64,000 nucleotides of DNA from Methanosarcinales archaeon (GTDB lineage Archaea > Halobacteriota > Methanosarcinia > Methanosarcinales > Methanocomedenaceae). Positions 1-34,785 of this stretch are shown here, piece by piece. A model generated the notes under the pieces. It saw only the letters and a program-made list of their open reading frames with translations. It ran no database searches and was not told the DNA's origin. A program made the translations under genes and the position numbers. Numbering within the stretch: the stretch's first letter is position 1; every line of letters starts with the position of its first letter. Location: the NCBI GenBank assembly GCA_030627385.1, contig DAOUSF010000001.1, forward strand, positions 12,077-76,076, given 5' to 3'.

Positions 1-59
1 CCTGAAGATAGACTGGACACAAAATTGTCAAGTTCCTCTTCCAGATCATCTATGGCCAT
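1..59 (-). CDS. hypothetical protein, N-terminal fragment (continues past window start)
   Basis: Minus-strand ATG at 59-57 opens MAIDDLEEELDNFVSSLSS with no stop before the window edge. It lies directly downstream of the 84..242 minus-strand ORF. Confidence 0.25.
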   Translation of the reverse strand, partial: MAIDDLEEELDNFVSSLSS

Positions 60-83
60 TGCTTTGAACTCTTTAATTTTCCA

Positions 84-242
84 TTAAAAAATCACTAACT
101 GTTCGTCTTCAACACCTATGATTATATCCTGATTAATATCCATCACTCCAGCACTGATATCAATGCAATCTATTTCAGGATCTTGTACGTCATTGTTTTC
201 CAATACTTCATCAACCATTATTTTAAATTCTGACCATTTCAT
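84..242 (-). CDS. hypothetical small acidic protein (52 aa)
   Basis: Minus-strand ORF MKWSEFKIMVDEVLENNDVQDPEIDCIDISAGVMDINQDIIIGVEDEQLVIF with GGAGA about 5 nt upstream of the ATG. Too short to appear in the ORF track. Confidence 0.4.
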   Translation of the reverse strand: MKWSEFKIMVDEVLENNDVQDPEIDCIDISAGVMDINQDIIIGVEDEQLVIF

Positions 243-273
243 ATTATCTCCAGTTATCTTCGGTTATCTTCTT

Positions 274-855
274 TTACGCCTTTGTATGGCTCATTATCAT
301 CTGGTAAATAGAGTGATCTTCCATTTCAAGTGCATCCTCTATCATAAGCTCGGTAACAAAATCAGATAATCCTTTACCTGTATCGTGATCCCAATCATTA
401 AGGCTCCTGTATACAAAACGTGTTACCATTTCCTTTATGGTATCCTCTTTGACAGGCAGTCCTTCTTCAATCAAGCTCACTACCTGTTCGGGATCTGATT
501 TAAGAGGTGTTCTGTATAGTATCCATATAGCAATGATATTCTTCTTTATGGTCAAAGATGTTACAATGCCTCTTGGTAGACGGACTGATATTTTGATATG
601 TTGGGAAGTGGGCAAGGACTTAACAAGAGTGCTTTGAACAGTGGAGCCGGTGGAGCCCGTGGAGCCCTGAAGGTCTGGTGGTGCGGAGTCTTGATTGTAT
701 TGCTCCTTGAAACCCTTTTTATAGTCCGACTGTTCTGGGACAGGTGAAGTGGCAATGGTCTTAACAATGGTCTTAACAACCTTCTTACGGTTGTTTGCAC
801 GGCTGACTGGGTTTTGGAATTCAAACTTGTTTTGGAGATTGTTGATACTGTTCAT
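274..855 (-). CDS. hypothetical protein; possible ribbon-helix-helix-like DNA binder
   Basis: 193-aa minus-strand ORF with AAGGAAGG upstream. It contains a GSTGSTGST repeat, and the ISVRLPRGIVTSL segment resembles an RHH beta-strand. It abuts the large non-coding region. Confidence 0.55.
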   Translation of the reverse strand: MNSINNLQNKFEFQNPVSRANNRKKVVKTIVKTIATSPVPEQSDYKKGFKEQYNQDSAPPDLQGSTGSTGSTVQSTLVKSLPTSQHIKISVRLPRGIVTSLTIKKNIIAIWILYRTPLKSDPEQVVSLIEEGLPVKEDTIKEMVTRFVYRSLNDWDHDTGKGLSDFVTELMIEDALEMEDHSIYQMIMSHTKA

Positions 856-961
856 AGGTGCCCTTCCTTGTTAGTTGTGTCTGGTCATACAATACATAAG
901 ATAGACGGCTTTAATTGGTTTGTCAAGAACTTTTTTATAATCATACTACGCAGGGGTCCAA

Positions 962-1050
962 TTCAGTATAGCGAAATAGGCGCGGTACAGAGGTCGGGAT
1001 ACAGCTTTCAGTATTCAGTGGTTCAGTGTGGAGTGGTTGCGGGGTTCAGT
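962..1050. repeat. cluster of five TTCAGT motifs
   Basis: TTCAGT occurs at 962, 1007, 1014, 1022 and 1045, all in the same orientation. Confidence 0.5.
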
Positions 1051-1189
1051 ACTACATGGGACGGGATCTTATGATACTACTTAGGGGTTGGTAAATATTT
1101 ATGATGTGAGAAAGGGCCCCCGGCCATTTTCAGAAAAGGGGTTCCCGCCGCCTTTGGTGATATCATTGTTATCCTCAGTGAACAACCGT

Positions 1190-1451
1190 GGCAGGATGTA
1201 TATATCGTTGGCAGGATGTATACATTGTTTGCCTAATAATAACAATGTTCTGCCCATGATAACAATGTTTATTCTCCTATAACGTTGTTCTGCCTATGAT
1301 GCATGTGTTTATCCTATGATAACATTGTTTAGCCTATAGTTACATTGTTTAACCTATGATAACATTGTTCATCCTATGAGGCATACGTGTAGCCTACGCC
1401 ACTCATGTATAGCCTATGAGGCATACGTGTAGCCCATGATAACATTGTTAT
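1190..1451. repeat. tandem array of about 13 x 20-bp iterons (candidate replication origin)
   Basis: The units read GGCAGGATGTATAYAYYGTT x2, then (G/T)CCYATGATAACAWTGTTYA and GCCTATGAGGCATACGTGTA variants. The 20-bp period is strict and there are no spacers. Confidence 0.85.
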
Positions 1452-1699
1452 TGTATAGTGAACGCCGTTCGGTAGGTGATAGTGTTGTTATTACGATATA
1501 AACAAGGATCTACGATATGAATGGCATACCATCCTGTGTGGGCGTCTATGCAAGTACCGTGCTAAGGCGTATATTTCCTGCCCTTGATATAAGACGCTTT
1601 ATGGGTGATATAAGAGCGGTATATGAGGGACAGGACCACTCACCCAGGCAAAGTCTGAATCTCAATATTCGGTTTTTATCCTATGATATCGGTACTTTA

Positions 1700-1910
1700 T
1701 ATAGGCAGGTTTAGTATAGGCTTATATATCGGTAGGTTACAGTGATTTAGGCAAAGTCAAGGAAATAATGCGGTTTCTATCATATGGCTGAATATTTGTG
1801 GCCGGACTTATATCAAGGCAGACTTATATTGTTAGGCAGGCATAACTATAAGGCGAGGACGGATGTGGCAGATATCGAGGCACGGACTGAGGCAGATATG
1901 ATCCGGCATA
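1700..1910. repeat. dispersed GGCAG/TAGGC short-repeat cluster
   Basis: Examples are aaGGCAGactta, taGGCAGgcata, gtGGCAGatatc, gaGGCACggact and gaGGCAGatatg, spaced about 10-14 bp apart. TAGGCA and TAGGCT copies occur at 1706-1750. Confidence 0.5.
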
Positions 1911-1958
1911 TTTGAGTCAATCAAACGACAATAAAACGCCGTACAAGACAAATCCTTG

Positions 1959-2040
1959 CTGTTTTTACGCTGTTTTAGTGTATTGCGTATATAATCGCCG
2001 GCATTTGATATAAACAGCGTTTAAATAGCACTAAAAACGA
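1959..2040. repeat. copy of the intergenic inverted-repeat / ATAGCACTAAAAACG element
   Basis: ACGCTGTTTTA (1967) pairs with TAAACAGCGT (2011) and is followed by ATAGCACTAAAAACG (2025). The same core occurs at about 5574 and 29336. Confidence 0.5.
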
Positions 2041-2230
2041 TTATTAATGAATATGGCGCGGATATTGCTTAAAATAACAATGTTATCGGTAAAAAAACAA
2101 TGTTAATTAGGCAAAACAGCGTTATTTGCACTCCAATAGCGGTATTTCAACATTTATTTTGCCCTGTAAATAGCCGTATTCATTACATTATTTGAGAAAA
2201 CGCCGCAAATCGCCGCATATGTATGCTAAT

Positions 2231-2260
2231 ATTATGTATTATTATGTATTATTATGTATA
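2231..2260. repeat. 3 x 10-bp tandem repeat ATTATGTATT
   Basis: attatgtatt attatgtatt attatgtata, read directly from the sequence. Confidence 0.8.
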
Positions 2261-2271
2261 AAGCAATTGAC

Positions 2272-2365
2272 AGTGCCTATTCATGGCACTCTTGACTGAT
2301 AATTTATTTTCATTTATCTTTCAGGGTGGGCACTAATTGCCTATCATGGGCACTTAATTGCCTAT
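2272..2365 (+). promoter_or_regulatory. candidate promoter with GGCACT operator sites
   Basis: The palindrome AGTGCC-N7-GGCACT (2272-2290) abuts TTGACT (2292-2297), followed by a 17-nt spacer and TATCTT (2315-2320). Two direct repeats GGGCACT(T)AATTGCCTAT lie at 2328 and 2348. Confidence 0.35.
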
Positions 2366-2629
2366 AACGGAGTTTTACTGCTATCCGGTTCTATTATAGA
2401 TTGAAATCGAACAACAAACGGGACGGCGCATCTGGCGCAACAGGCAACAAAGTAAACGCCGACGCAGGCAACAACATGCACCGCATATGAGGCAGCGGGT
2501 TATGATCTTTGAAAATTTGTAAAATCGGACGTAAAGGCGGGACGCCATTTGGGATGCTCGGAAGAGTTCTTAAAAATCAAGGAAAGTGGTTGATCCAGGA
2601 AAACAAGCCAGTCCGTAGGTGCTATATAG

Positions 2630-3060
2630 AATCGAAGGAAGGTAGGCGCCTTGAAGGAACATAAAAAAAGATTAATTACAAAAACGTAGGTTTTAAGGAA
2701 AAGGTTAAAATAGGACTTAAAGCGTAGGTTTTTGTGCTTAATAACTGATAAAAAAGGAGATTTAAAATGAATTTATGCAAATTGATAGGATACGGACTTG
2801 TTTGGGGAACGGCAGTAAACGTGGCAATTATTTTGATTCTGGCTGGGATGTAATACAAGAAATTCAGGAGAACATGAGAAAAAATGGCTATTTTTAGCCC
2901 AATCCATGTCGACCAAAGGCAGAGTAAGCGATCCAGCAGAGTATAGCCTAATAGGAAATATTGTAGGATAGGCTTATCTTATATAATCTTATAGCTTTTT
3001 TTTAATGAAGGTATAATGAAGGTAGGTTGTATATACAAGGTAGGATGGTAAAGATAATGA
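2630..3060. repeat. dispersed (A/C)GTAGG(T) motif cluster
   Basis: Copies include gaaGGTAGGcg 2640, acGTAGGtttt 2686, gcGTAGGtttt 2733, tGTAGGatagg 2962, gaaGGTAGGttg 3027 and caaGGTAGGatgg 3046. Confidence 0.45.
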
Positions 3061-3115
3061 GGATAAGGCGGTCTTGTTCTTAATAGTCATATAATCGAAT
3101 GAAAAGGAGTAAATC

Positions 3116-3625
3116 ATGGGAAATCTTAAGGATGTTGTAACTGTTGATTGTAAGTCATTTGGCAAAAAAAGTGCTAATTTTAAAAAATGTTTGACCTGTG
3201 AGGATGAGGTGAAGAAGGCCTGCCAGGATGCTTTTATTGCATTAAGTGCCGAAAAAACTGAAGTAAAAGGAACTGAAGTAAAAGAAATTACCAATAATCA
3301 GGAGAATCAAAAGAATCAGGAGATTAAAACAATGAAAAACTTGAAAAATTCCACAAATTCAACAACTGCCGCAACAAATGCAAAAATTGGAAAAGCCCAG
3401 ATGGTTAAGGATATGATCTTTAGCCTCGCAAGAAAAGCCGAATATACTCGGAAAGAATTGGGACAGGCTATTCAAGCTTCCTTTCCTGAGTATAAAAATT
3501 CTACTTTGTCCACTTATATCTCTGATTCGTTTAATGTGAAATATGCAGGAGTTACAGGATGTGGCGCCCATCGGATGTTGTCATATGTCCAGACTGGCAA
3601 GAAAAAAATCATAGTAGTAAGATAA
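3116..3625 (+). CDS. hypothetical protein; C-terminal domain paralogous to the 32379..32948 protein (putative DNA-binding)
   Basis: RBS AAAGGAG. The C-terminus ...YTRKELGQAIQASFPEYKNSTLSTYISDSFNVKY aligns with ...HTKKEIVDEVAPKFPDVTVSTISTFVQDCMNVKY of the 32379 ORF. Confidence 0.7.
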   Translation: MGNLKDVVTVDCKSFGKKSANFKKCLTCEDEVKKACQDAFIALSAEKTEVKGTEVKEITNNQENQKNQEIKTMKNLKNSTNSTTAATNAKIGKAQMVKDMIFSLARKAEYTRKELGQAIQASFPEYKNSTLSTYISDSFNVKYAGVTGCGAHRMLSYVQTGKKKIIVVR

Positions 3626-3637
3626 AATGAACAGGTG

Positions 3638-3680
3638 GGAAGGGCGTCGGTTGTGATGGCGTCCTTCCTCTTAGGTTTCA
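3638..3680 (+). terminator. stem-loop terminator candidate
   Basis: GGAAGGGCGTC (3638-3648) pairs with GGCGTCCTTCC (3658-3668). A T-rich stretch follows, 13 nt after the stop codon at 3625. Confidence 0.5.
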
Positions 3681-3756
3681 TTGTTTTAAGTGTTTATATG
3701 GGTTCTGAAATATTCAGGACGGATATAAGTATTTAAACAATAAAAGGAGATATAAA

Positions 3757-3948
3757 ATGGAAAAAATAACTATTAAGAAGATCGGTCCCTTTACGGATAC
3801 GGAATGTCCTAATGGGCAAAAAGAGTACAATATTTCCGGAGCTGAAAAAATTGTAATGGCTGGATCAGGAACCTGCAGGCGCTGTAAATATTATACTTTT
3901 TTACCTCTGGCAGGAGCGGATACTTTCGGTTGTACTTTCAAATCCTAA
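3757..3948 (+). CDS. hypothetical protein (63 aa, Cys-containing)
   Basis: RBS AAAGGAGA; co-oriented ORF. Confidence 0.5.
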   Translation: MEKITIKKIGPFTDTECPNGQKEYNISGAEKIVMAGSGTCRRCKYYTFLPLAGADTFGCTFKS

Positions 3949-4143
3949 AACGGATCGTAATATCAAGAAAAGGGGGTTGGTTTGAGGACATTTTTGGCAA
4001 TAATTGTGGTGCCTTTCTTGAAAGTATCTGGCTGGAGATTCGGCAAGGATTTCAGGAATGCGGATAGTGGTTGGAAGTTGGTTGTTTATTCGTGTATCAA
4101 TACAGTCCAGGCGAATATCTGGGCAAATTAAAAGGAGATAGAT

Positions 4144-4401
4144 ATGGACCCGAGAATGGAAGAAATTTACGGAAATCCGGATATCGGAATGGAGTGGATT
4201 GGTGAGGCTATTTGTGTGGAACCTGAGATTGAAGTGGAAGAGGATGATTCGGAAAAGGATCTTGTTTGTCTGTTTAAAGGGTGTACGCCAATTAATTCCT
4301 TGCTTGCAAAAATGCAAGAGGATGCGGAGGCTATGACGGCAGAGGAAAGGGAAGTTTATTTTGACGATCTTGACCAGGCCATTGTCCGTCTATGTGATTA
4401 A
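4144..4401 (+). CDS. hypothetical acidic protein
   Basis: RBS AAAGGAGA; 85 aa, rich in E and D. Confidence 0.55.
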   Translation: MDPRMEEIYGNPDIGMEWIGEAICVEPEIEVEEDDSEKDLVCLFKGCTPINSLLAKMQEDAEAMTAEEREVYFDDLDQAIVRLCD

Positions 4402-4461
4402 TTTGATTAAAATCGAAAATGGGTTTAGGAATCCTATTATAAGAAAAGGGGGTTAATTTTT

Positions 4462-4761
4462 ATGAGGAATGGAACAAAGTTTTATCGGACTTCTGGCGGC
4501 AAAAATATCAGGATGAAGGAGCTGGTTTTCCGTGGGGAGAATCTTGCAATTTGTCCGGCCTGTGGAAGTGGGAATGCCATGTTGTCTGGGAGCCGAAAAA
4601 CCAGTGCCACAACGGTTTGCGATTCCTATAAATGCAGGGATTGTGGATTCAAGGTGGATGATCAGGATGCTGTCAAGATTTATACCGAATTGGATAAGCC
4701 CGGAATGGGCAATAATAGCACCTATTCGGAAGTGAGGCGGGCCATTGGTCTTGGAAATTAA
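4462..4761 (+). CDS. hypothetical zinc-ribbon protein
   Basis: RBS AAGGGGG; CPACG...CRDCG Cys pairs. Confidence 0.55.
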   Translation: MRNGTKFYRTSGGKNIRMKELVFRGENLAICPACGSGNAMLSGSRKTSATTVCDSYKCRDCGFKVDDQDAVKIYTELDKPGMGNNSTYSEVRRAIGLGN

Positions 4762-4765
4762 TTCA

Positions 4766-4812
4766 TTATCAGGTGATATAATTCGAGGATTGTGTCGCCG
4801 AATAAGGTGTTA
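4766..4812 (+). ncRNA. conserved intergenic hairpin element, copy 1
   Basis: ttatcaGGTGATAtaattcgaggattgTGTCGCCgaataaggtgttaa. The stem GGUGAUA/UGUCGCC includes G-U pairs. It shares loop and flanks with copies at 6066 and 7052. Confidence 0.55.
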
Positions 4813-4863
4813 ATTTGTTAATTTATAAAGGAAATATAAATTGTTTATAACAGGAGGAAGCCA

Positions 4864-5019
4864 ATGAAATGGTTTTCAATTATTTGTTGGGCAATAGGTA
4901 TTGGTACGTATATCCATATCTATTCAATTCATACGAAAAATACAGATTATCCGACCTTCTTGGAGTTCTGTGGAATGACAATCAAGGCTGTATTTGAAAA
5001 ATGGTTTATGTTCTCATAA
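4864..5019 (+). CDS. hypothetical small membrane protein (51 aa)
   Basis: RBS AGGAGGAA. The hydrophobic N-terminus reads MKWFSIICWAIGIGTYIHIY. Below the ORF-track length cutoff. Confidence 0.45.
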   Translation: MKWFSIICWAIGIGTYIHIYSIHTKNTDYPTFLEFCGMTIKAVFEKWFMFS

Positions 5020-5040
5020 TGAAAAAAAGGGGGTTATTAA

Positions 5041-5238
5041 ATGGGCAAGAAAATTGACCATCGTCCTTACCGGACAAACTCTCCTGGGATATTTATTATC
5101 CAGGATGTGGAGTTAATTGAAACCACTGGTTGTGATAGTGATTATGTGATAAGGTTGAAATGTGGTGATGATCATTATTACCGTTGTTCCTGTGCTATCA
5201 CATTTGAAAAGTCAGGTAAATTTCTAACTATAAAATAA
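5041..5238 (+). CDS. hypothetical protein
   Basis: RBS AAGGGGG; 65 aa. Confidence 0.5.
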   Translation: MGKKIDHRPYRTNSPGIFIIQDVELIETTGCDSDYVIRLKCGDDHYYRCSCAITFEKSGKFLTIK

Positions 5239-5251
5239 GGGGGGGTCAAAA

Positions 5252-5524
5252 ATGTATGAGGATTGTCAATTACCAGAAGATTATAAACCATTGCCTGAGT
5301 GGGTTTCGGGGTGGGGATGGTCTGACCAAAGGAATCATGAAACGTGGTATCTGTTTGATACAATGCCTACCGACTGGATAGAAATTGGGGATTACCATAT
5401 CTGGGTCGATTTCCACATGTCCGCCAGACTCGTTCTTTTCCACGAAAAAAAGATGAGGAAGGAAATGAAGGCTTTTGAGGAATACCGAGACCTGATGGGT
5501 GAACTCCACGGAAGGAATTATTAG
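5252..5524 (+). CDS. hypothetical protein
   Basis: RBS AAGGGGGGG; 90 aa. Confidence 0.55.
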   Translation: MYEDCQLPEDYKPLPEWVSGWGWSDQRNHETWYLFDTMPTDWIEIGDYHIWVDFHMSARLVLFHEKKMRKEMKAFEEYRDLMGELHGRNY

Positions 5525-5540
5525 GAAGATCGTTTTAATT

Positions 5541-5610
5541 GCTGTTTTAAGCGGCTTTTTTAATACTGATATCATAGTACTAAAAAACTTTAAAAAGCCG
5601 TTAAAACAGC
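5541..5610. repeat. long inverted repeat with ATCATAGTACTAAAAA core
   Basis: GCTGTTTTAAGCGGCTTTTT (5541-5560) pairs with AAAAAGCCGTTAAAACAGC (5592-5610). The loop carries tatcatagtactaaaaa. Confidence 0.6.
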
Positions 5611-5681
5611 AAGGTTTTGACTCACAATTGATGGGTTTAATTAATATTGATCTATAAAGCAGAACAAAGGGAGATTTAAAA

Positions 5682-6014
5682 ATGGCAGAAGGAATTATCA
5701 TGGGCAGAATGGACAAGGATTTGATTGATCATGGAATCCTGGCTGAAGGAGAGGTTGACAATGCCTCTCATGGAATAATCTTATTGAACCAATGGGCAAT
5801 TCCACACTTTGATTGGGCCATAATAGTCAGAATAGGAGCGGTAAAAGTAAGTAAGACTACCTCAGAATACCTAATTGGAAGATTGAAGGAACTTTTGCCT
5901 GATCAAACTCGGGAAGTAATGATGCTCTGGCTAAACTATGGGTGGTCAATCAAAGAGGACATGCCTGATTGGCAGTGCTGGATTGACTTTTCCAAAATTG
6001 ATTATAAATCGTAA
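5682..6014 (+). CDS. hypothetical protein
   Basis: RBS AAGGGAGA; 110 aa. Confidence 0.55.
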   Translation: MAEGIIMGRMDKDLIDHGILAEGEVDNASHGIILLNQWAIPHFDWAIIVRIGAVKVSKTTSEYLIGRLKELLPDQTREVMMLWLNYGWSIKEDMPDWQCWIDFSKIDYKS

Positions 6015-17487: not shown

Positions 17488-17637
17488 ATGAGAAAGGTAA
17501 GAGTTAGTTTTTCGTTTCCACAAGAAATGAAAAAAACCTTAGAAAAATTAGCCAAAAAGTCAGGATTCAAGCTTATGGGGTATATTAAGCTGATAATGAA
17601 TCAGGAAGTAAAAAGGCTAAAAGGGGAGGGCAAATGA
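17488..17637 (+). CDS. ribbon-helix-helix (CopG/Arc-like) protein, 49 aa
   Basis: RBS AAGGAGA. MRKVRVSFSFPQEMKKTLEKLAKKSGFKLMGYIKLIM fits the beta-strand, helix, helix pattern. Below the ORF-track cutoff. Confidence 0.55.
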   Translation: MRKVRVSFSFPQEMKKTLEKLAKKSGFKLMGYIKLIMNQEVKRLKGEGK

Positions 17638-17798
17638 GTTCCGCAAGAATTACAATACCCTATCCCGAAGAGGGTGCCGAACTACTGGTAAAAGAATCCA
17701 AAGCCCAGAATAGAACGTTTTCTGGGTATATGCAAAATGTCATAACCAATTACATCAAAGAGAAGAAGGAGGAAAAAGATGGGTCTGATGTCGAATAG
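17634..17798 (+). CDS. second ribbon-helix-helix-like protein, 54 aa
   Basis: ATGA-coupled to the previous ORF. ARITIPYPEEGAELLVKESKAQNRTFSGYMQNVI fits the RHH pattern. Confidence 0.5.
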   Translation: MSSARITIPYPEEGAELLVKESKAQNRTFSGYMQNVITNYIKEKKEEKDGSDVE

Positions 17799-24939: not shown

Positions 24940-25128
24940 TATAGTTGAATTTCATTGATTATAAATGCTGTTCAGCGTGGTTGCTTTACAGAGCTATTAA
25001 TGAATCGGGTAAAGATTGAAAGGGAGTAAAAAGACTCTTTTTAAAAAAAAATGGTCTTGATTGCCCATTGAATGTTACCAGCATTCGCCCTTTCAAGATC
25101 GGGATCATTTTTTTTAAAAGGAGTTTTT

Positions 25129-25827
25129 ATGTTTATTGACATTAATAATCTTTCTATATTGGATTTAACTGGCCTACGGGAAATTAAAACCAATATAGAA
25201 AGAGAAATTAAACTAAGGGAAAAAACATTAAAAGAAAAAAGAAAAAAGATTCAAGAAGAAAAAGATAAAATAACCATAAAAAAAGAAAATAAAACAGAAA
25301 AAAAACGGCAAGACTGTAAAAAACACAAACTGTATCTTCCCCTCCCCATAAATGGACATTATTGTAGATGTCTGTCATACCTTCCTTACCTACTTAGTCA
25401 AGATTGGACACATCTGTATAAAGATGCCTGGTTAGATGATGAAAAAAAATACTATGTATATGCCCACACAAATCCTTTAAAACAAAATACACACATAACA
25501 AGTAGGTTAATAATACCTGGTATTCCTTTTTATATAGGAAAAGGTACAGGAGATAGAGCATGGGATTTAAAAAGAAATCAAGGGCATGGTAAAGAAATAA
25601 AAAAAATATCACTATTTGTACCTGAAAACGATATTGTTTTTATAGTTAAAGATAATCTTACAGAGGAACAGGCATTTATATTAGAATCAAAACTTATATA
25701 TTTCTTTGGTACTATATATGGATTAAGAAAAAAAGGTATATTATATAATTTAAATGAAGAAAGAACTCCTTTGTTTAGTGAACAAAAATTTGTGTTACGA
25801 AAAAAACAAAATAGGGGTGTGGTATGA
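25129..25827 (+). mobile_element. GIY-YIG family (homing) endonuclease-like gene
   Basis: YYVYAHTNP...IPFYIGKGTGDRAWD resembles the YVY...PFYVGKGxGxR GIY-YIG core. The N-terminus is Lys-rich. RBS AAAGGAG. Confidence 0.55.
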
Positions 25828-27194
25828 AACATGGTGAAGAATTTAATCCTAGAATAAAGTTCTACGGACTTTTTGTTCCTAATTGCATAGCTATGAATGA
25901 TAAAATACTTGATGCTCCTAAGTTACTGTTAGGAAGATTAATGCAGTTTGCAGGAAAAGATGGAAAAGCTTATCCTACTGTGGGCAGATTAGCTATGGAG
26001 CTTGGATGGAGCAAAAAGAAAAGTCAAAGAAATATAAAGGTCCTGAAAGACATGGGCTTAATAAATGTAAGTAAATTAGAGCCTGACAACCCTATCTCTC
26101 CGAATATATACGCATTCCCATATAGCCCACTATACGACTTTGAACCGGGTGACAATGTTGACACCGGGTGTGATGGAGAAGACGATGGAACCTCTATACC
26201 GGGTGACACGGATGTCACCGGGCCGGTGTCACGGATGTCACCACATATAATAGAATCAGAAATAATAGAATCACCTATTTGTAATTCTTCTAAAGAAGAA
26301 TATGCTCCTGCGGAGCCTACCTCTGCGAGTGATAGTCCTCTTGATTACAATGGCTTACTTTGTTCAATGTGTAATGAACCTCAATTCTCTTGTAAATCAG
26401 GAGATACCTGCAAGAATGGGCATGGAGGAGTTGAAGGCATTGAAAAAGAAGAAATTGCTCCTATATCAATATTTCCTACTAAGTTAAAAAGGATTATTAA
26501 AACTCCGAATCCTTTCAAATATTCCCCTAAGACATTGAAAATCATTGTTCATTGGGAAAAACGTGGAGGTAAAGTTCATTATAAAACAACATCAGGCAAT
26601 GGGCTTGATAAAATCAAAAATATGATTGATTATGAATTATTAACTCCTGGATTAAACTCTTGCTATTCCCGACATACGAAAAATGATGACCTTAAAAAGA
26701 AACAGTGGACTGTAAATGAAATTTTGCAGTCAATTGATTTTTATACCCAAACTTTGAACAAAGATGTTTCCAAAATGTATTTCAGTCAGTTTGTGTGGAT
26801 AGAGTATTTTGGACCCGCATCCCGTCATCTTAGAAACCACTCACCTTTGCTTGACAGCTTTAGAAATCTTCCCGATGAAGCTACAGAAAAATGGCAAGCA
26901 TTGCTCAGGAAGAAATTCAATAAACTGTTTCCTTCAGTTGATATCAACTCCACAGTTCTTCTCAATACTGCCGCCTATCTTGTTCAACAAGATATAGAGT
27001 TTAAGGTTGTTGATAGTGGAGTACTTGGCAATCATATGGTGAATCTATATGTTGCCTATATGAGAAGGATAGTAACTGCTAAAGGTGATTATGAATCCTT
27101 AAAATATATGTCGGGACAAAAGAATCTGGATGATTTCGTCACATACTTCCTAACTAAATCAGTAAAGCTGAGAAAGAGGTCAAAACTTGCTTGA
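25824..27194 (+). CDS. putative replication initiator / helicase loader (N-terminal winged HTH)
   Basis: AYPTVGRLAMELGWSKKKSQRNIKVLKDMGLINV reads as a DnaD/replisome-organizer-like HTH. It lies directly upstream of the DnaB-like helicase and overlaps it. Confidence 0.5.
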   Translation: MKHGEEFNPRIKFYGLFVPNCIAMNDKILDAPKLLLGRLMQFAGKDGKAYPTVGRLAMELGWSKKKSQRNIKVLKDMGLINVSKLEPDNPISPNIYAFPYSPLYDFEPGDNVDTGCDGEDDGTSIPGDTDVTGPVSRMSPHIIESEIIESPICNSSKEEYAPAEPTSASDSPLDYNGLLCSMCNEPQFSCKSGDTCKNGHGGVEGIEKEEIAPISIFPTKLKRIIKTPNPFKYSPKTLKIIVHWEKRGGKVHYKTTSGNGLDKIKNMIDYELLTPGLNSCYSRHTKNDDLKKKQWTVNEILQSIDFYTQTLNKDVSKMYFSQFVWIEYFGPASRHLRNHSPLLDSFRNLPDEATEKWQALLRKKFNKLFPSVDINSTVLLNTAAYLVQQDIEFKVVDSGVLGNHMVNLYVAYMRRIVTAKGDYESLKYMSGQKNLDDFVTYFLTKSVKLRKRSKLA

Positions 27195-28701
27195 TACTAA
27201 AACCATTTCTTCCACAGAAGAAAAGCGGATTGTGACGGGTATGATTGTCTCCACTGAATTTATGCAGGCCATCAAGCCCATCTATTCTCTGGACTACTTC
27301 AAAAATTCTTATTTAAAAACAGTCGCCGAATGGGTGGATATATTCTTTGAGGAATACGGTAAAAGCCCTTTCCTGCATATAAAAGATATATTCGAGGCAG
27401 AGTCACATTATCTGGATGAAAATGATGTGGAAATGATTGAAATGCTTCTCGGTGATCTGGATGATAAATTCGATGAAGGAGAGATAAATCTAAAGTATTG
27501 GACAGACAGTGCAAATGATTATTTCCGTTCCCGGGAACTTGAGATAACGGTCAACAATATTTCCGTATTAAATGAGAAAGGAGATCTTGAAGGTGCTGAA
27601 AAGGAAATAGAGAACTTCAAGAAAGTTACCCTTGAGATTGATCAGGGGGCACTTATTAATCCTGGTGACTTAAATCAACAGGAGAGAATCTATGAAAAGA
27701 GGGAAAAGGATGATAAAAACTTTTTTCAACTTCCAGGGGATCTGGGAAAATATCTTGGTAATCAGAAACGTGGTGATGTTGTTGCTTATTACGGACCCGC
27801 CAAACGTGGTAAAACTTTCACCCTAATCAATCAATTCAAACATGGTGTCCTGAATAGACGTAAAACCTTATTCTGGTCCATAGAAATGACGGATACAGAA
27901 TGTCTCCCAAGAGTAAACAAATCCTTCTATCCTATGATAGACAAAGAACCCGGAATATATAAATTTCCTGTATTTGATTGTGTTCACAACCAGACTGGGG
28001 ATTGTGGGGATGGCTTGTCCCCTGCTATTCTTTATCAAGATGGAGATTTCGTAGACGACCCTACTCATATTCCTTGTACAAAGTGCCGAAAACATCCTGA
28101 TAATGCTGAATCAGTAAGGTATGAAATGGCAGTATATCAGGACTCTATTTATAGGGAACATGATGATATTTTTGCTATTCGTGAAGTCCATAAAAAATAT
28201 AAGAGGATGTTTGATAAATATGGCAGATTATCAATTCATCCCAAGTACACACTTACCTATGAAAAGATGATGCGTGATCTGGATGTTTTTTGGAGAACTC
28301 AGAAATGGTTTCCTGATATCCTGATCATTGATTATATTGACATTCTTGGAATTAATTCAAGCTTTGATGATTACAGGCTTGAAGATGAAAGATGGAAGTT
28401 ACTCGCTAAGATTGCAGGTGAAACAAACACACTGGTAATCACAGCGACACAGGCAAATAAAGCGGGCCATACTACTGATGTCTTGGACGCAACTCACCAG
28501 GGTGGATTTTATGGCAAGAACAGGCACGTTAACTTAATGGTTGGCTTAAATCAGCCAGCAGAAGACAAGGCACGGGGAATAATGAATTTTGGTATAACCG
28601 AAGCAAGGGACAAGGAATATATCCCAGGTCAAACATGTGCTGTATTACAGGACTTTAAGACCGGCCAAGCTTACTTAGATTCATATTACGCCTACGTGTA
28701 A
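27187..28701 (+). CDS. DnaB-like replicative DNA helicase
   Basis: Walker A YYGPAKRGKT, Walker B ILIIDYIDIL, and ITATQANKAG. TTG start in the track, so the start is uncertain. Confidence 0.75.
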   Translation: MLDTKTISSTEEKRIVTGMIVSTEFMQAIKPIYSLDYFKNSYLKTVAEWVDIFFEEYGKSPFLHIKDIFEAESHYLDENDVEMIEMLLGDLDDKFDEGEINLKYWTDSANDYFRSRELEITVNNISVLNEKGDLEGAEKEIENFKKVTLEIDQGALINPGDLNQQERIYEKREKDDKNFFQLPGDLGKYLGNQKRGDVVAYYGPAKRGKTFTLINQFKHGVLNRRKTLFWSIEMTDTECLPRVNKSFYPMIDKEPGIYKFPVFDCVHNQTGDCGDGLSPAILYQDGDFVDDPTHIPCTKCRKHPDNAESVRYEMAVYQDSIYREHDDIFAIREVHKKYKRMFDKYGRLSIHPKYTLTYEKMMRDLDVFWRTQKWFPDILIIDYIDILGINSSFDDYRLEDERWKLLAKIAGETNTLVITATQANKAGHTTDVLDATHQGGFYGKNRHVNLMVGLNQPAEDKARGIMNFGITEARDKEYIPGQTCAVLQDFKTGQAYLDSYYAYV

Positions 28702-30443: not shown

Positions 30444-31556
30444 ATGAAAGCATCCATAACTAATGTAATAAAATTTGAGACCGCTCACCAGTTGACTGAC
30501 TCTTACTCTGAGGAAGATAATACCTATACTTGCCCTGTGTGTAATAAGGAAGGAATAAAAAGCATATTTTCTCATTGCAGTAATACAGGTGATAGTGTTC
30601 ATTTAAACTGGATACAAAAATTAAACGATGAAATAAATGAAGAAATTGACAATCTTTTTCCTGATTATATGCAAATGGAAATAAATTTGAAATTGCAGGA
30701 GATTTTACCCACCCTGTCTCCTAATATTATTGCAAATAAGATCAGAAGCAGAGCAAAGGAAACAGGTATAAATACCAGAAAAGTATTAGGGAAATGTAGA
30801 ACTGGGTTAAATAATCCTGTACATACGAAAGGAACAAAGGATAAAATATCTAAATCAGTCAAGAAGAAGTGGGAAGAAGGTTCTTATTCAGATAGAATAA
30901 ATGGAATGCAAGGGAAATTAGGGCCTTTATCAGGAAGATACGATCCATCAATTCATACCATAGAACATAAAGGTCTATATTATTTTAATTCTTTTTTATC
31001 TGAATTTCAAGATATTTCAGTGTGTTCAAGATGTAAGGGTGTTGAAAATAAAATTAATGTACACCACATTGACGAGGACCATAAAAACTTTCTACCGTCA
31101 AATCTTGAGCCCTTGTGTGTGCTCTGTCATATGTCCAATCACTACAAACAAGTTAAGAAGCCATTCGTTACTATAGGAAAAGAATTTACATTTGCGGCGG
31201 CACATCAATTACCAAACCACCAAGGGATGTGTCAATATCTCCATGGACATGAATGGAAGCTTAGAATTGAGTTGAAAAAGAGGGTAGATTTTAAAACAGG
31301 AATGGTAATGGACTTTTCTGATTTGAAAAAAATAGTGAAGGAGCATGTAATATCTATACTTGATCATAACACCTTAAATGAGATAATATATAATCCGACA
31401 GCCGAGAATATCCTAATATGGATCTGGGAAAAACTAATGTTTGAAGGCCTGCTCAAGGGAATTTATAAAATTCATTTATGGGAATCATCCGATAGTGTAG
31501 CAGTACTTGACCAGAAAGGGATGTTATCCGTTTTTACTGAAAAAGGAGTAAAATAA
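30444..31556 (+). CDS. queD: HNH/NUMOD endonuclease module fused in frame to 6-carboxytetrahydropterin synthase QueD
   Basis: Residues about 240-370 form a full QueD (EFTFAAAHQLPNHQGMCQYLHGHEW, LDHNTLNE, PTAENI). Residues 18-239 carry NUMOD3-like GLNNPVHTKGTKDKISKS and HNH NVHHIDEDHKN...CVLCH. Residues 1-17 repeat the QueD start (VIKFETAHQL). Confidence 0.8.
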   Translation: MKASITNVIKFETAHQLTDSYSEEDNTYTCPVCNKEGIKSIFSHCSNTGDSVHLNWIQKLNDEINEEIDNLFPDYMQMEINLKLQEILPTLSPNIIANKIRSRAKETGINTRKVLGKCRTGLNNPVHTKGTKDKISKSVKKKWEEGSYSDRINGMQGKLGPLSGRYDPSIHTIEHKGLYYFNSFLSEFQDISVCSRCKGVENKINVHHIDEDHKNFLPSNLEPLCVLCHMSNHYKQVKKPFVTIGKEFTFAAAHQLPNHQGMCQYLHGHEWKLRIELKKRVDFKTGMVMDFSDLKKIVKEHVISILDHNTLNEIIYNPTAENILIWIWEKLMFEGLLKGIYKIHLWESSDSVAVLDQKGMLSVFTEKGVK

Positions 31557-32215
31557 TGTTTGTAGCTGATATATTTGAATCATTCCACGGAGAAGTGAAT
31601 GGACATCACCAAGGACGAATTGTCACATTCATACGCCTCTCTGGATGTAATCTTAGATGTTCCTATTGTGATACCAAAGAAACATGGGATAAACTTTATG
31701 GGGAAAATCTTAGCCCTCTTCTAATCCTTAACAGAGTTAAAGAATTAGGACATAAACACGTTTGTATTACAGGTGGCGAGCCTTTACTGGATAAGGCGGC
31801 AGTACTGGATTTAATGCATATATTATCAGAGGAAGGGTATCGCATATCCGTTGAAACAAATGGCACTATCAGTATCACTCCTTTTGTTAGATTTGTGGAT
31901 AGCTTTATTATTGATTGGAAAATACCCCCCAGACCGTTTAAAGGAAAGAATCTATTCCTTGAATCTAATTTGGTAAATTTAAGGAATACAGATATTATCA
32001 AGTTTGTGGTTATGGATGAAGATGATGTTATACTGGGAATAAAACTAACGGAAATAATTATCAGAGACAAATATAAATCAAATACTCTGGTTGCTTTTTC
32101 TCCTATTATTTCAGAAGATTTTTTACCAAAGCACTTAGCAAACGCATTGCTTTACCATAAAGCTAAAAACTGTATTTTATCTGTCCAGATTCATAAACTT
32201 ATTGATTTCAAATAA
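31556..32215 (+). CDS. queE: 7-carboxy-7-deazaguanine synthase QueE (radical SAM)
   Basis: FIRLSGCNLRCSYCDT radical-SAM cluster motif and ITGGEPLL. The start is coupled to the queD stop. Confidence 0.85.
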   Translation: MFVADIFESFHGEVNGHHQGRIVTFIRLSGCNLRCSYCDTKETWDKLYGENLSPLLILNRVKELGHKHVCITGGEPLLDKAAVLDLMHILSEEGYRISVETNGTISITPFVRFVDSFIIDWKIPPRPFKGKNLFLESNLVNLRNTDIIKFVVMDEDDVILGIKLTEIIIRDKYKSNTLVAFSPIISEDFLPKHLANALLYHKAKNCILSVQIHKLIDFK

Positions 32216-32279
32216 TGGTCCTGTGCAACATGCCGATATTACACGGATTTAATCTTAATGATTTTTTATTAAAAAGTGC

Positions 32280-32308
32280 TTGACTTCTCATTCATTTTTC
32301 ATTAAGAT
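32280..32308 (+). promoter_or_regulatory. class-2 promoter, copy f
   Basis: TTGACT-17 nt-TAAGAT, preceded by the A/T tract attttttattaaaaagtgc. Confidence 0.55.
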
Positions 32309-32378
32309 GTATTTAAATTGTTCAAGAGTGAAAAAGCAGTTCAAGAGTAAATTTAATTAATTTTTAAGGAGAAAGAAA

Positions 32379-32948
32379 ATGGCAAAACTGACAGACGCCC
32401 AGAAAGCAGAAATGGCAAAATTAAAAGCGATTCCCAATGATTTGATGAAATTATCCATTGCATCCCTCAATACCTTCTTGACCAGCAAGGAAAAAGACAA
32501 AATGCCCAAAGCAAAATCCAAGGGCGAAGCCGTAAAACTTTTTACCGATGCAATTGCAGGCCTGCTTGAAGCTGACCTGGGTGAAGAAATTCCGGAAGAT
32601 GTTGCAACTTTTTATAACGACCATGTTGTGGGTGACGATGCAGAGGCTGGTGATACAGGTGCTGATGATGGAAAAGCCGCCCCCAAGCCCAAAGCTGACA
32701 AGACCAAAACAACCAAACCCCGGAAAACCAAAGCGGAAATACAAGCCCGGTATGATGCAATCTCTGCCATGATCGTCACAGGTAAACATACCAAAAAGGA
32801 AATCGTGGATGAAGTTGCTCCCAAGTTTCCGGATGTCACGGTCAGCACCATCTCCACATTTGTGCAGGACTGTATGAATGTTAAATACAACAAATTGCCC
32901 AAGTTGACGGTTAAGGCCGAAGACGGAAAACTCTCCTTCGCCAAATAG
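32379..32948 (+). CDS. Lys/Ala-rich putative DNA-binding protein (paralog of the 3116..3625 C-domain)
   Basis: RBS AAGGAGAAAG. Central AAPKPKADKTKTTKPRKTK tract. The C-domain is shared with the 3116 ORF. The gene has its own promoter and terminator. Confidence 0.75.
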   Translation: MAKLTDAQKAEMAKLKAIPNDLMKLSIASLNTFLTSKEKDKMPKAKSKGEAVKLFTDAIAGLLEADLGEEIPEDVATFYNDHVVGDDAEAGDTGADDGKAAPKPKADKTKTTKPRKTKAEIQARYDAISAMIVTGKHTKKEIVDEVAPKFPDVTVSTISTFVQDCMNVKYNKLPKLTVKAEDGKLSFAK

Positions 32949-32985
32949 TCCTGCCCCTATGACATTTAATGAGTAACCCCGAAAA

Positions 32986-33028
32986 GGCGGAGCGTCCCTC
33001 AATTCCAACAGCTCCGCCTTTTTTATTT
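32986..33028 (+). terminator. rho-independent terminator
   Basis: GGCGGAGC (32986-32993) pairs with GCTCCGCC (33011-33018) and is followed by TTTTTTATTT. Confidence 0.8.
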
Positions 33029-33043
33029 CAAAAGGAAAACGAT

Positions 33044-33718
33044 ATGAATGGAGCCGTTGTATTGTTAAGTGGAGGACAAGATTCTACCACGTCATTATTT
33101 TGGGCTTTGTCCAAATATGATGACGTTTTTGCCTTGATTCTTGACTATGGACAGAGGCACAGGATAGAAATAGAATCAGCAAAGAAAATTGCTGAATTGG
33201 CTGGTGTCGAGTATATGGTAATTGACCTTAACTTCTTTAAAGAAATAGGCAACTCTGCCTTGATTGGGGATGTATCAGAAGTAAATGAACCGCATTCCTG
33301 TGATTCAAATCTGCCCGCATCATTTGTCCCTGGAAGAAATCTGATTTTTATCACTATCGCCTCTATGGTAGCATATAAGAGAGGACTGAACGCTGTTGTT
33401 ACTGGTGTTTGCCAAACAGATTATTCGGGATATCCTGATTGCAGGAACGCCACAATGAGGGCATTAAATGAGGCAATCGTGAAGGGCTTGGATAAAGCTA
33501 TCTTGATCAGTACACCTTTGATGTGGTTGACAAAAGAGGAAACTGTCAGACTGGCTCAGTCATTTGAAGGCTGTATGGAAGCTCTGGCATATTCTCATAC
33601 TTGTTATAATGGAGAGTATCCTCCCTGTATGCATTGTCCCTCATGCTGTTTAAGGACAAGAGGATTCAAAGAAGCAGGTGTAAGGGATCCACTGATTGTG
33701 AGGTACTATGATAAGTAG
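33044..33718 (+). CDS. queC: 7-cyano-7-deazaguanine synthase QueC
   Basis: MNGAVVLLSGGQDSTT (SGGxDS PP-loop). C-terminal Cys cluster CYNG..PPCMHCPSCCLRTRGF. The ATG at 33044 lies downstream of the terminator. Confidence 0.9.
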   Translation: MNGAVVLLSGGQDSTTSLFWALSKYDDVFALILDYGQRHRIEIESAKKIAELAGVEYMVIDLNFFKEIGNSALIGDVSEVNEPHSCDSNLPASFVPGRNLIFITIASMVAYKRGLNAVVTGVCQTDYSGYPDCRNATMRALNEAIVKGLDKAILISTPLMWLTKEETVRLAQSFEGCMEALAYSHTCYNGEYPPCMHCPSCCLRTRGFKEAGVRDPLIVRYYDK

Positions 33719-34319
33719 AAAATATCCAGGTGCCATTCTTGCCAATGCATCAAAGCATGACCGAATCAAAGCATTGGTACATGATCTTTTGGTGGAAATC
33801 AATGAAAATCCAAATAGAACGGGATTGAAAGATACCCCTGAACGTGTTGCCAAAATGTACTCTGAAATATTCAGAGGATACGATGATTCACAGAAACCGA
33901 ACCTTACTGTTTTTCCAAATGACGATGATGGGCTTTCCTTCAAAGGTATGATAATTGATCAAGGATACTTTTTCAGTCATTGTGAGCATCATATGGTTCC
34001 CTTCTTTGGTCATTATTACTTCGGATATATTCCCGATAAAACACTGATTGGCGCCTCAAAGATTGGTAGATTGATCAATTTCCATTCAGCCAAATTGCAG
34101 ATAGCGGAGCGCCTGTGTCGTGTTGTGATAGATGACATTGAGGAGGCTGTGAAACCTCAGGGTTGTATTCTCATAATGACTGCCCGCCATTTGTGTAAAG
34201 AAATGAGAGGAGTCAAGATGTTTAACAGCCCGTTTGAGGCGGACGATGCACGTGGTTGCTTCCTTGAAAATCATGCAGGATGTAAAGATGAATTTATTAG
34301 CAGAATAGGAATTAAATAA
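33708..34319 (+). CDS. folE: GTP cyclohydrolase I FolE
   Basis: TGLKDTPERVAKMY, CEHHMVPFFG, KLQIAERL. Confidence 0.9.
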   Translation: MISRKYPGAILANASKHDRIKALVHDLLVEINENPNRTGLKDTPERVAKMYSEIFRGYDDSQKPNLTVFPNDDDGLSFKGMIIDQGYFFSHCEHHMVPFFGHYYFGYIPDKTLIGASKIGRLINFHSAKLQIAERLCRVVIDDIEEAVKPQGCILIMTARHLCKEMRGVKMFNSPFEADDARGCFLENHAGCKDEFISRIGIK

Positions 34320-34784
34320 ATGAAACATAAACATCTTGGATCAAACAAAACGGACTATCAGTTCTCCGAGCCCTCGGCTGATCTTCTGGACACATTCAAA
34401 AACAAACACCCTAATATCTATCTGGTACCATTTGTTATGCCCCGGGATGAGTTCACAAGTCTTTGTCCCGTCACGAATCAGCCTGACCAGGCAAAGATTG
34501 AAATAATCTATGTGCCTTTCGATGATATGGTTGAAAGTAAGTCCTTGAAACTGTATCTTTTCTCCTTTAGAAATAACGGAGAGTTTCATGAGGATGTTAT
34601 TAACAGAATAGCCAAGGATCTGTATTCAGCAATGAAGCCCTTGTATATTCGTGTTTATGGTGACTTTGCTCCACGTGGGGGTATTGCAATCAAACCCATG
34701 GTTGAATTGTGGAATTCCAATGACCCTCATGATACAAAGCTGATTGAAAATTATGTGAAAATGTGGGACAGGAAAAGGAATTAA
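34320..34784 (+). CDS. queF: NADPH-dependent 7-cyano-7-deazaguanine reductase QueF (unimodular YkvM type)
   Basis: [14 protein letters not shown] (catalytic Cys), QueF motif [17 protein letters not shown], and FAPRGGIAI. Confidence 0.9.
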
Positions 34785-34785
34785 T

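Follow-up and report, generated by a model that had tools for sequence, protein, structure and literature searches.

A tandem palindromic repeat array in the early/late control region of an uncultured phage, and separate palindromes within its initiator gene

In the iteron origins of plasmids and phages (R6K gamma ori, F ori2/incC, P1 oriR/incA and lambda ori), direct repeats of ~20 bp, about two helical turns, are often contiguous, number from 3 to 9, and lie adjacent to an initiator gene whose product they match. The lambda origin itself holds four 19-bp dyad-symmetric iterons inside gene O, followed by an AT-rich region, and phage SPP1 has oriL inside gene 38 plus a separate oriR. Spacer-free direct repeats of ~20 bp also make up parC of the pSK41/R1 type, which is bound by ParR. 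In the early/late switch of phi29, four p4 sites and periodic p6 binding lie between divergent early and late promoters, and in oriP of Epstein–Barr virus (EBV) ~20 EBNA1 sites in 30-bp units (the family of repeats) are accompanied by a dyad-symmetry element ~1 kb away. Here we analyze an array of 13 contiguous 20-bp repeats at positions 1190-1449 of a 64,000-nucleotide stretch of contig DAOUSF010000001.1 (positions 12,077 to 76,076, hereafter the window), which derives from an uncultured phage with 37.7% G+C on a contig of 101,489 bp. An earlier note on this sequence had proposed the array as a candidate replication origin and had pointed to an initiator-like protein encoded at 25824.

Iteron-looking arrays in phages are routinely annotated as origins. 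Comparison with relatives separated two repeat systems in this genome, namely a lambda-type origin candidate hidden in the initiator gene, and a larger array in the early/late region that would have a different reader. We tentatively favor the reading that the array, as part of the early/late control region, serves as a docking platform with many copies of the site of one phage protein. This protein would recognize a specific sequence, probably as a dimer, and would be neither the O-like initiator nor the terminase small subunit TerS. Among the systems above, the array resembles iteron origins in having distant extra sites (a doublet at 2075-2105) and AT-rich DNA nearby, but it has 13-25 units instead of 3-9, one relative has lost it while retaining the initiator, and the initiator lies 24 kb off with different sites inside its own gene. 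The layout of the lambda origin is matched by positions 26148-26303 and not by the array. As in phi29, multiple sites occupy the region that separates divergent early and late units, and a periodic nucleoprotein complex is proposed, while the array differs in being spacer-free and shows no sequence or protein homology to the phi29 switch. The likeness to EBV oriP, with many palindromic dimer-binding sites in tandem and a few more of the same sites several hundred bp off, is a purely formal analogy, since oriP belongs to a eukaryotic virus and its maintenance/enhancer function has no counterpart in the evidence on the array.

The repeat array and its position

The array is real and far above chance. 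On the + strand, 1190-1449 consists of 13 contiguous 20-mers without spacer (the layout being read from 1190), with the unit consensus TAgCCTATGATAACATTGTT. The strict 20-bp period that had been described was confirmed: the mean pairwise identity among the 13 units is 0.548, while it is 0.267 in 2000 shuffles of the array's own 260 bases (standard deviation 0.011, maximum 0.307). When self-identity at lag 20 was scanned in 200-bp windows (window-wide mean 0.265, standard deviation 0.042), the maximum of 0.61 was found at 1201-1400, which is the top lag-20 signal of the whole 64 kb. Tandem Repeats Finder (TRF) reported periods of 20, 40 and 60 for the array, the latter two indicating a higher-order structure in which blocks of two or three units were duplicated. 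The conservation is uneven by position, with most information in the 3' half of the unit and in the ATG of the 5' half, and G-T at unit positions 18-19 shows no variation across the 13 units. Since 20 is not divisible by 3, the repeats cannot give rise to a recurring peptide. Two open reading frames (ORFs) overlapping the array (1088-1282 on the + strand and 1099-1257 on the - strand) were considered and rejected, being without support as genes.

The units fall into the types AACAWTGTT, GGCATACGTG / GCCACTCATGTA and GGCAGGATGTATA. All of the three sequence subfamilies recognized before were located in the array: the units at 1190 and at 1210 begin with GGCAGGATGTATA, exact copies of CCTATGATAACATTGTT stand at 1313 and 1353 and copies with 1-3 mismatches at 1253, 1333 and 1433, and CCTATGAGGCATACGTGTA is found at 1373 and 1413. 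The exact core AACAWTGTT is held by only 5 of the 13 units, and its central base does change part-way, from A (1241 and 1261) to T (1321, 1361 and 1441). Outside the array, exact cores in the window are limited to 2076 and 2096, which are 20 bp apart, and to 8166 within a gene. The former two are the extra copies that the earlier note had put at 2084-2110; they exist, but about 10 bp away from where they had been placed. They form a palindrome doublet on the + strand ~630 bp to the right of the array (2075-2105, TAACAATGTTA and AAACAATGTTA; TRF row 2071-2116). For TAACAWTGTTA with at most one mismatch, nine sites were found in the window (2.35 expected), eight of which are within 1161-2105. 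Degenerate units on the + strand, about four on the flanks, stretch the array to ~1150-1489, so that it comprises ~16 units overall: two are on the left flank (1150-1189, …ATCATTGTT, which is ~2 bp off register, and …GAACAACCGT), and two are on the right flank in register (1450-1489, …GAACGCCGTT and …ATAGTGTTGTT).

The array is located in a non-coding gap of 2.26 kb (856-3115), by far the largest in the window, which separates leftward structural and packaging (late) genes from rightward early and replication genes. All genes from 3116 on are on the + strand. GC skew is positive over all of these + strand genes and follows the coding strand, so the skew switch at the array is inseparable from the switch in gene orientation. 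Directly left of the array is a GC-rich element (1114-1152, GGGCCCCCGGCC…AAGGGGTTCCCGCCGCC), which is the most widely conserved non-coding block and is present in all members of the family.

Seven further loci were reached through homologues of the 193-aa protein encoded by the first leftward gene (274-855, - strand), which carries the invariant motif HIKISVRLPRGIVTSLTIKKNIIA. In the orientation of the window, their layout is leftward promoter, TACTAC boxes, GGTAAATATTTAT, GC-rich element and repeat array. The array persists at the same position in at least five diverged relatives, with differing core and period. Locus L011 has ATGATAACAATGTT units together with the GCCACTC-TGT variant units of the window, arranged in near-identical 60-bp blocks, so both this variant type and the AACAWTGTT-type are common to the window and L011. 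The array of L008 consists of AACAWTGTT units and the contig stops within it, L014 has ~19-25 units of AACGTTGTT with a period of 19-20 bp, and L013 has a TTATTCAT-type motif at ~18 bp, a similar one beginning in L009. No AACRWTGTT array was found in the 1.7-kb non-coding region of L007, where repeats of 10, 12 and 37 bp exist instead. A position that is kept while sequence and period drift fits a protein-DNA pair in co-evolution, as opposed to a structural signal that is fixed. Window positions 1064-1150 form a block of 81% identity with L011, which takes in the TACTAC box at 1075 and the GC-rich element. Contig ends lie inside the array in L008 and L011, because such repeats break assemblies (as with the near-identical 60-bp blocks of L011), while the contigs of the window and of L007 read straight through.

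Searches outside this family contributed little. A near-identity search with window positions 1-6000 and a distant search with 1100-1520 against cultured phages gave nothing useful, and an exact 17-mer of the array had only single chance matches in IMG/VR. The 193-aa protein and the 169-aa product of the first early gene had no relatives in IMG/VR, either as single queries or as a profile, and a scan of JGI metagenomes for relatives of the flanking proteins yielded two short contigs only.

Palindromes within the initiator gene

The identification of an initiator-like protein at 25824 was borne out by a match to Pfam HTH_36 (3e-8) and by matches to the replication initiation / O-like families of PHROG. 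The O-like initiator (25824-27194, + strand) contains an HTH_36 winged helix at residues 33-80, an acidic linker, a zinc ribbon and a conserved C-terminal part, and its gene is followed by that of a DnaB-like helicase (27187-28701, + strand). A sequence search of PDB with the initiator family gave no match. Inside the initiator gene are three perfect 18-bp palindromes of the form GGTGWCA-N4-TGWCACC, starting at 26148, 26202 and 26225 (26148-26242). With up to two mismatches allowed, there are three matches in the window, all of them within 95 bp, where 0.49 would be expected. The palindromes correspond to codons ~108-140, in the acidic linker directly after the HTH_36 domain, and are followed by an AT-rich stretch with two 15-nt direct repeats (26242-26303, CACATATAATAGAAT and CAGAAATAATAGAAT), a candidate unwinding element in which 40-mers starting at 26244-26264 reach 78% A+T.

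Two lines of evidence reveal conservation of this segment as DNA. The third palindrome is read in another frame than the first two (PGDNVDTG, PGDTDVTG and PVSRMSP), which means that selection acts on the DNA. In comparison with L037 (from the phage of L011, initiator 73% identical), identity at synonymous third positions is 0.81-0.94 over 26184-26450 vs 0.25-0.69 upstream in the gene, and L037 shows GGTGACACTGATGTCACC and GGTATCACGGATGTCACC with the same AT-rich repeats at the same position. In the more distant L036 (from the phage of L007, initiator 39% identical), three TGTCA-N4-TGACAC repeats are spaced by 24 and 23 bp and are followed by a AATAGAAT-rich tract.

The palindromes at 26148-26242 are, from their sequence and setting, the best candidate for the initiator's own iterons, and the O-like protein most likely initiates replication at a lambda-type origin within its own gene (26148-26303). 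As in lambda, dyad repeats come after the DNA-binding domain, an AT-rich tract comes directly after the repeats, the helicase gene is downstream, and the layout is conserved in relatives. The differences are that there are three copies and not four, with spacings of 54 and 23 bp, and that, unlike in lambda O, the C-terminal part of the initiator is a zinc ribbon plus a large conserved domain. The in-gene palindromes (as GTGWCA-N4-TGWCAC) are absent from 856-3115 and from every non-coding control region examined, and none of the initiator loci examined holds the array core. In the phage of L007 and L036, the initiator and the in-gene repeats are kept while the array is missing. The proposal that the protein at 25824 uses the array as its origin is not supported by these results, and the origin is best sought at ~26.2 kb.

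The initiator appears to be modular. In the alignment of P0023-P0032, four of nine homologues (P0025, P0026, P0029 and P0032) have an unrelated N-terminal domain, the divergent N-terminal domains being joined to the same zinc ribbon and C-terminal part, which suggests swapping of an origin-specificity module. Just upstream of the initiator gene is an ORF for a lysine-rich protein of 251 aa without family assignment (25072-25827), inside which A-rich tandem repeats of 7, 12 and 19 bp were found (25229-25334).

The palindrome in other genomes and the role of the array

When IMG/VR was scanned for pairs of cores spaced by 20 bp, 21 loci were obtained, mostly chance matches. True arrays, with 3 units or with two plus two, were found in four loci, L023, L031, L034 (with its relative L026) and L035. 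In all of these the arrays are upstream of a Terminase_2-type terS, at a distance of 118-1200 bp, and the encoded TerS proteins are 42-65% identical among themselves, so the loci represent a single clade, hereafter the second clade. No similarity was detectable between these proteins and the TerS of the window phage (HTH_23/28 type), and tblastn of all window ORFs against the second-clade loci found a helicase only. The two groups have in common a C-rich element (TTTTTGAcCCACCC in the second clade), which is the counterpart of the GC-rich element, and GGGTGGG…TTGCCTA. In the second clade, TAACAWTGTTA also occurs as singles and close doublets, within ~130 bp of the start of terS and also directly ahead of the first early gene. 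Since a clade with unrelated TerS shares the motif, TerS is not the shared reader; palindromes that are both scattered and clustered look like operators of a dimeric regulator, which likewise argues against TerS. As an observation in its own right, a protein of 82-87 aa with a signal-peptide-like N-terminus and conserved cysteines, probably exported, is encoded in L023 (4708-4962), L031 (8473-8721) and L026 (1150-1413), its gene being the first after the palindrome doublet in L023 and L031 and the second in L026. Contig ends near 5 of the 21 pattern matches had also been considered as physical genome ends. This idea was dropped, as three of the five (L015, L018 and L020) are chance or coding matches. 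The ends of L010 and L026 carry inverted-duplication artefacts.

A palindrome of this kind has a precedent as an operator. TAACATTGTTA was shown by electrophoretic mobility-shift assay to be the operator of MtvA, a dimeric MazE-like regulator of the Pseudomonas aeruginosa plasmid pPAD8 (PMC11826091), and positions 1440-1450 of the window hold the identical 11-bp palindrome. Unlike the array, the MtvA operator consists of one site, placed within the promoter of a toxin-antitoxin system (PMC11826091), and the parallel shows only that such a palindrome suits a dimeric repressor. Pfam and PHROG scans of small ORFs revealed no protein of the MazE/AbrB type in the window.

In the mechanism that we infer for the docking platform, each 20-bp unit would present one near-palindrome (T)AACAWTGTT(A), and the core TAACA-W-TGTTA has the symmetry that suits a dimer. 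With a spacing of 19-20 bp, successive dimers would come to lie on nearly the same face of the DNA, and up to ~16 units might fill cooperatively into one nucleoprotein complex. Such a complex could hold or titrate a regulator and help to set the early-to-late switch, with the doublet at 2075-2105 as a smaller outpost of the same system. The size of the array would change by unequal exchange, at which the 40- and 60-bp higher-order repeats hint, and the core would co-evolve with its reader, for which the candidate is the product of the first early gene (3116-3625). If the platform reading is true, the phage, a virulent one by its genes, would have an operator system expanded to an unusual degree, and this would offer a handle on expression timing in large uncultured phages.

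The candidate reader is a 169-aa protein (3116-3625, + strand) with a Cys4 zinc-ribbon-like N-terminus, a variable linker and a conserved winged-helix-like C-terminal domain. Its full-length structural model was too poor to use (pLDDT 48); the model of the C-terminal domain (pLDDT 64) has a helix-strand-helix-helix-hairpin order, and its top fold matches are all winged-helix DNA binders, none of them significant. Sequence searches of PDB with the 169-aa and the 193-aa families found nothing. The protein and the array co-occur in two genomes, and the protein is replaced in one genome without the array: L014, with the AACGTTGTT array, encodes two paralogues whose putative recognition helix is almost invariant, and L007 encodes an unrelated winged-helix-like protein in its place. 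The 193-aa protein has a motif that is nearly invariant across genomes whose arrays differ and has no family match; if it binds DNA, it would more likely recognize the TACTAC boxes, which are just as invariant, than the array. Pfam and PHROG scans of the small early and late ORFs gave no helix-turn-helix (HTH), MazE or AbrB match and one weak match to RHH_1, a ribbon-helix-helix (RHH) family. Two adjacent ORFs at 17488-17798 (49 and 54 aa) with weak RHH similarity are probably the RHH proteins of the earlier note. One of them matched Pfam RHH_1 (E = 0.004), and phmmer to CopG gave 0.0075; nothing was found that ties them to the array.

Several observations weigh against the docking platform. 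Between 13 and 25 contiguous sites far exceed the need of any classical operator, no convincing promoter-like site was found over the array in the window, and L007 manages without such an array. Over the second-clade doublets, promoter-like hexamers (TTGAAC-17-TAGTAT / TAATAT) match at 8/12, which is below the scan threshold, and they were not called. The product of 3116-3625 is possibly the reader, yet with three genomes this is a lead and not a result, and no homologue was found in the 5-10 kb around the arrays of the second clade. In addition, a scan of bacterial genomes (596 Gb) for three cores at exact 20-bp spacing gave 91 loci (L042-L132), the great majority of which belong to a dispersed intergenic repeat of Acidobacteriota/Thermoanaerobaculia with 3-11 units and unrelated neighbors. 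Because these arrays have no consistent neighbors, core and period alone are no proof of shared function. Judged from their sequences, they are an undescribed family of REP-like or minisatellite-like repeats, and the match is most simply a product of query selection, a repeat family fitting the query, rather than homology. More than 14 such loci are present on one chromosome, often between convergent genes, and single arrays of the same core and period were also seen in metagenome-assembled genomes of Muribaculaceae, Christensenella, Cytophagia and Chitinophagales.

Four other explanations were weighed, of which a replication origin, though doubtful, is the most probable. The repeats would be iterons for the O-like or another initiator, perhaps at a second origin, and the DNA would melt in the AT-rich stretch on the right-hand side. 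Direct repeats that follow one another at about two helical turns do resemble plasmid iteron arrays, and the array, with 13 units plus ~4 degenerate ones in helical phase, is placed in a gene-free region of 2.2 kb where transcription and GC skew diverge, with 40-mers of 85% A+T at 2216-2265, in a phage that encodes an initiator, a DnaB-like helicase, a primase, a clamp, a clamp loader and a polymerase. Yet the skew switch is confounded with gene orientation, the DNA directly beside the array has only 57-60% A+T (in 100-bp bins just to its right, the richest 40-mers being ~770 bp away), and the initiator has conserved lambda-type repeats and an AT-rich tract in its own gene, 24 kb away, so that neither the match of repeats to the initiator's sites beside its gene nor, as L007/L036 illustrates, their joint inheritance was found. 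The half-sites are also spaced differently, as ACA-N1-TGT in the array and ACA-N4-TGT in the gene, and one dimer would be unlikely to read both. What stands of the array as an iteron-like set of docking sites is that it is real, conserved in position and located in a large non-coding gap at a strand switch; the origin part of that reading is weak. A packaging site (pac or cosB-like), in which oligomeric TerS would wrap the array with one subunit per repeat and the GC-rich element would be the cut site or part of it, is unlikely. The array is upstream of the operon with terS (L006 5309-5950, left of the window on the same contig), terL and portal, as the 3-unit arrays of the second clade are upstream of their terS, and contig L026 starts right at the C-rich element. 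The closest cultured relatives of TerL, at 43-44% identity, are the YuA/M6 group, reported as headful packagers (PMC11946847), which need a pac site. Against this, the motif is common to two clades between whose TerS proteins no similarity was detectable, and within the family the HTH region of TerS is highly conserved (59-88% overall identity) while the array core changes or disappears, so that the array does not co-vary with the DNA-binding domain of TerS. Moreover, terS is ~4.5 kb from the array with six genes between, the second-clade palindrome also lies beside the first early gene, where a terminase has no known business, and the contig ends inside the arrays of L008 and L011 are explained by repeat-induced assembly breaks. 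If either a second origin or a pac site were true, the relatives would provide a set of protein-DNA pairs in natural co-evolution, with AACAWTGTT, AACGTTGTT, TTATTCAT and none.

Slightly less probable still is a neutral or nearly neutral minisatellite, in which replication slippage or unequal crossing-over multiplied one or two functional operator copies into an array of mostly idle units. The 40- and 60-bp periodicities with the near-identical blocks of L011, the fast turnover of unit number, period and sequence among relatives up to the loss in L007, and the dispersed intergenic arrays of Acidobacteriota would all fit it, but at least five diverged relatives keep an array in this place, the units are unevenly conserved (invariant GT and a preserved palindrome) where uniform decay would be expected, and the window and L011 have kept a variant unit type in common. 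A plasmid-type centromere, where an RHH or similar adaptor would coat the repeats for segregation of a plasmid-prophage, is very improbable. It would account for the spacer-free ~20-bp direct repeats, which fit the layout of pSK41 parC, for the strand-helix-helix-like motif of the adjacent 193-aa protein and for the two weak RHH-like ORFs at 17488-17798. However, family scans of the larger ORFs and 67 small ORFs of the window, ~37 kb of the genome lying outside it, detected no ParA, ParM or ParB, so unlike in pSK41/R1 parC no partition ATPase or actin-like protein, and no pair of partition NTPase and adaptor genes beside the repeats, was found; the gene set points to a virulent phage, and the 193-aa motif is nearly invariant while the array core varies. 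The remaining probability falls to possibilities outside the docking platform and these four explanations. As an extension of the docking platform, and an improbable one, the array and the distant doublet may form a two-part cis element loaded cooperatively by a single early winged-helix protein, acting as a copy-number-sensing timer or an architectural hub that couples the early-to-late switch to replication independently of the in-gene origin, with co-evolution of reader and repeat fast enough to make it an incompatibility or immunity determinant between related phages.

Promoters, neighboring genes and other features

A sigma-70-like promoter, TTGACA-17-TATCTT (898-926, - strand, 10/12), faces the leftward operon, and the same hexamers were found in L014 and L007. 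Upstream of it are TACTAC boxes at 944, 1050 and 1075 (944-1080), which in relatives occur within 21-29-bp repeats in 3-4 copies, and an A/T tract was also seen upstream of this conserved late-operon promoter (898-1152 region and relatives L007-L014 and L040). Facing the early genes is a promoter-like site, TTGACT-17-TATCTT (2292-2320, + strand), flanked by operator-like repeats, GTGCC-N7-GGCAC at 2275-2291 and the 21-bp repeat GGGCACTWAATTGCCTAT present twice at 2327-2365. By its sequence, 2230-2365 looks like an early promoter with operators. Within the same segment, ahead of the promoter-like site, TATTATGTAT occurs three times (85% A+T), and a similar GGGTGGGTGCTTAGTTGCCTAG adjoins the array in L023. 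In scans of the control regions, promoter-like sites were not commoner than in shuffles, and the promoter argument is confined to the conserved leftward promoter.

Leftward, on the - strand, the gene order is the 193-aa protein, five small ORFs, terS, a 166-aa ORF, intein-bearing terL and portal. Owing to intein / LAGLIDADG homing-endonuclease insertions, TerL has 1133 aa here (L006 1411-4812), while it is intein-free with 487 aa in most relatives (L007, L008, L010 and L013). The rightward genes encode early proteins, an anti-restriction protein, helicases, a primase, the O-like initiator and the DnaB-like helicase, and further a 7-deazaguanine modification cluster, a sliding clamp, a polymerase, a clamp loader, SSB, a UvsX-like recombinase, a ligase and SbcCD. 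From this gene content the phage looks virulent, with a T4-like replisome and recombination set. Searches for tRNA and Rfam families found none in the window. The 7-deazaguanine DNA-modification cluster (30444-36699) encodes QueD/PTPS fused to an HNH-like part, QueE, QueC, GTP cyclohydrolase and QueF, as well as a DpdA/tRNA-ribosyltransferase-like protein of 637 aa.

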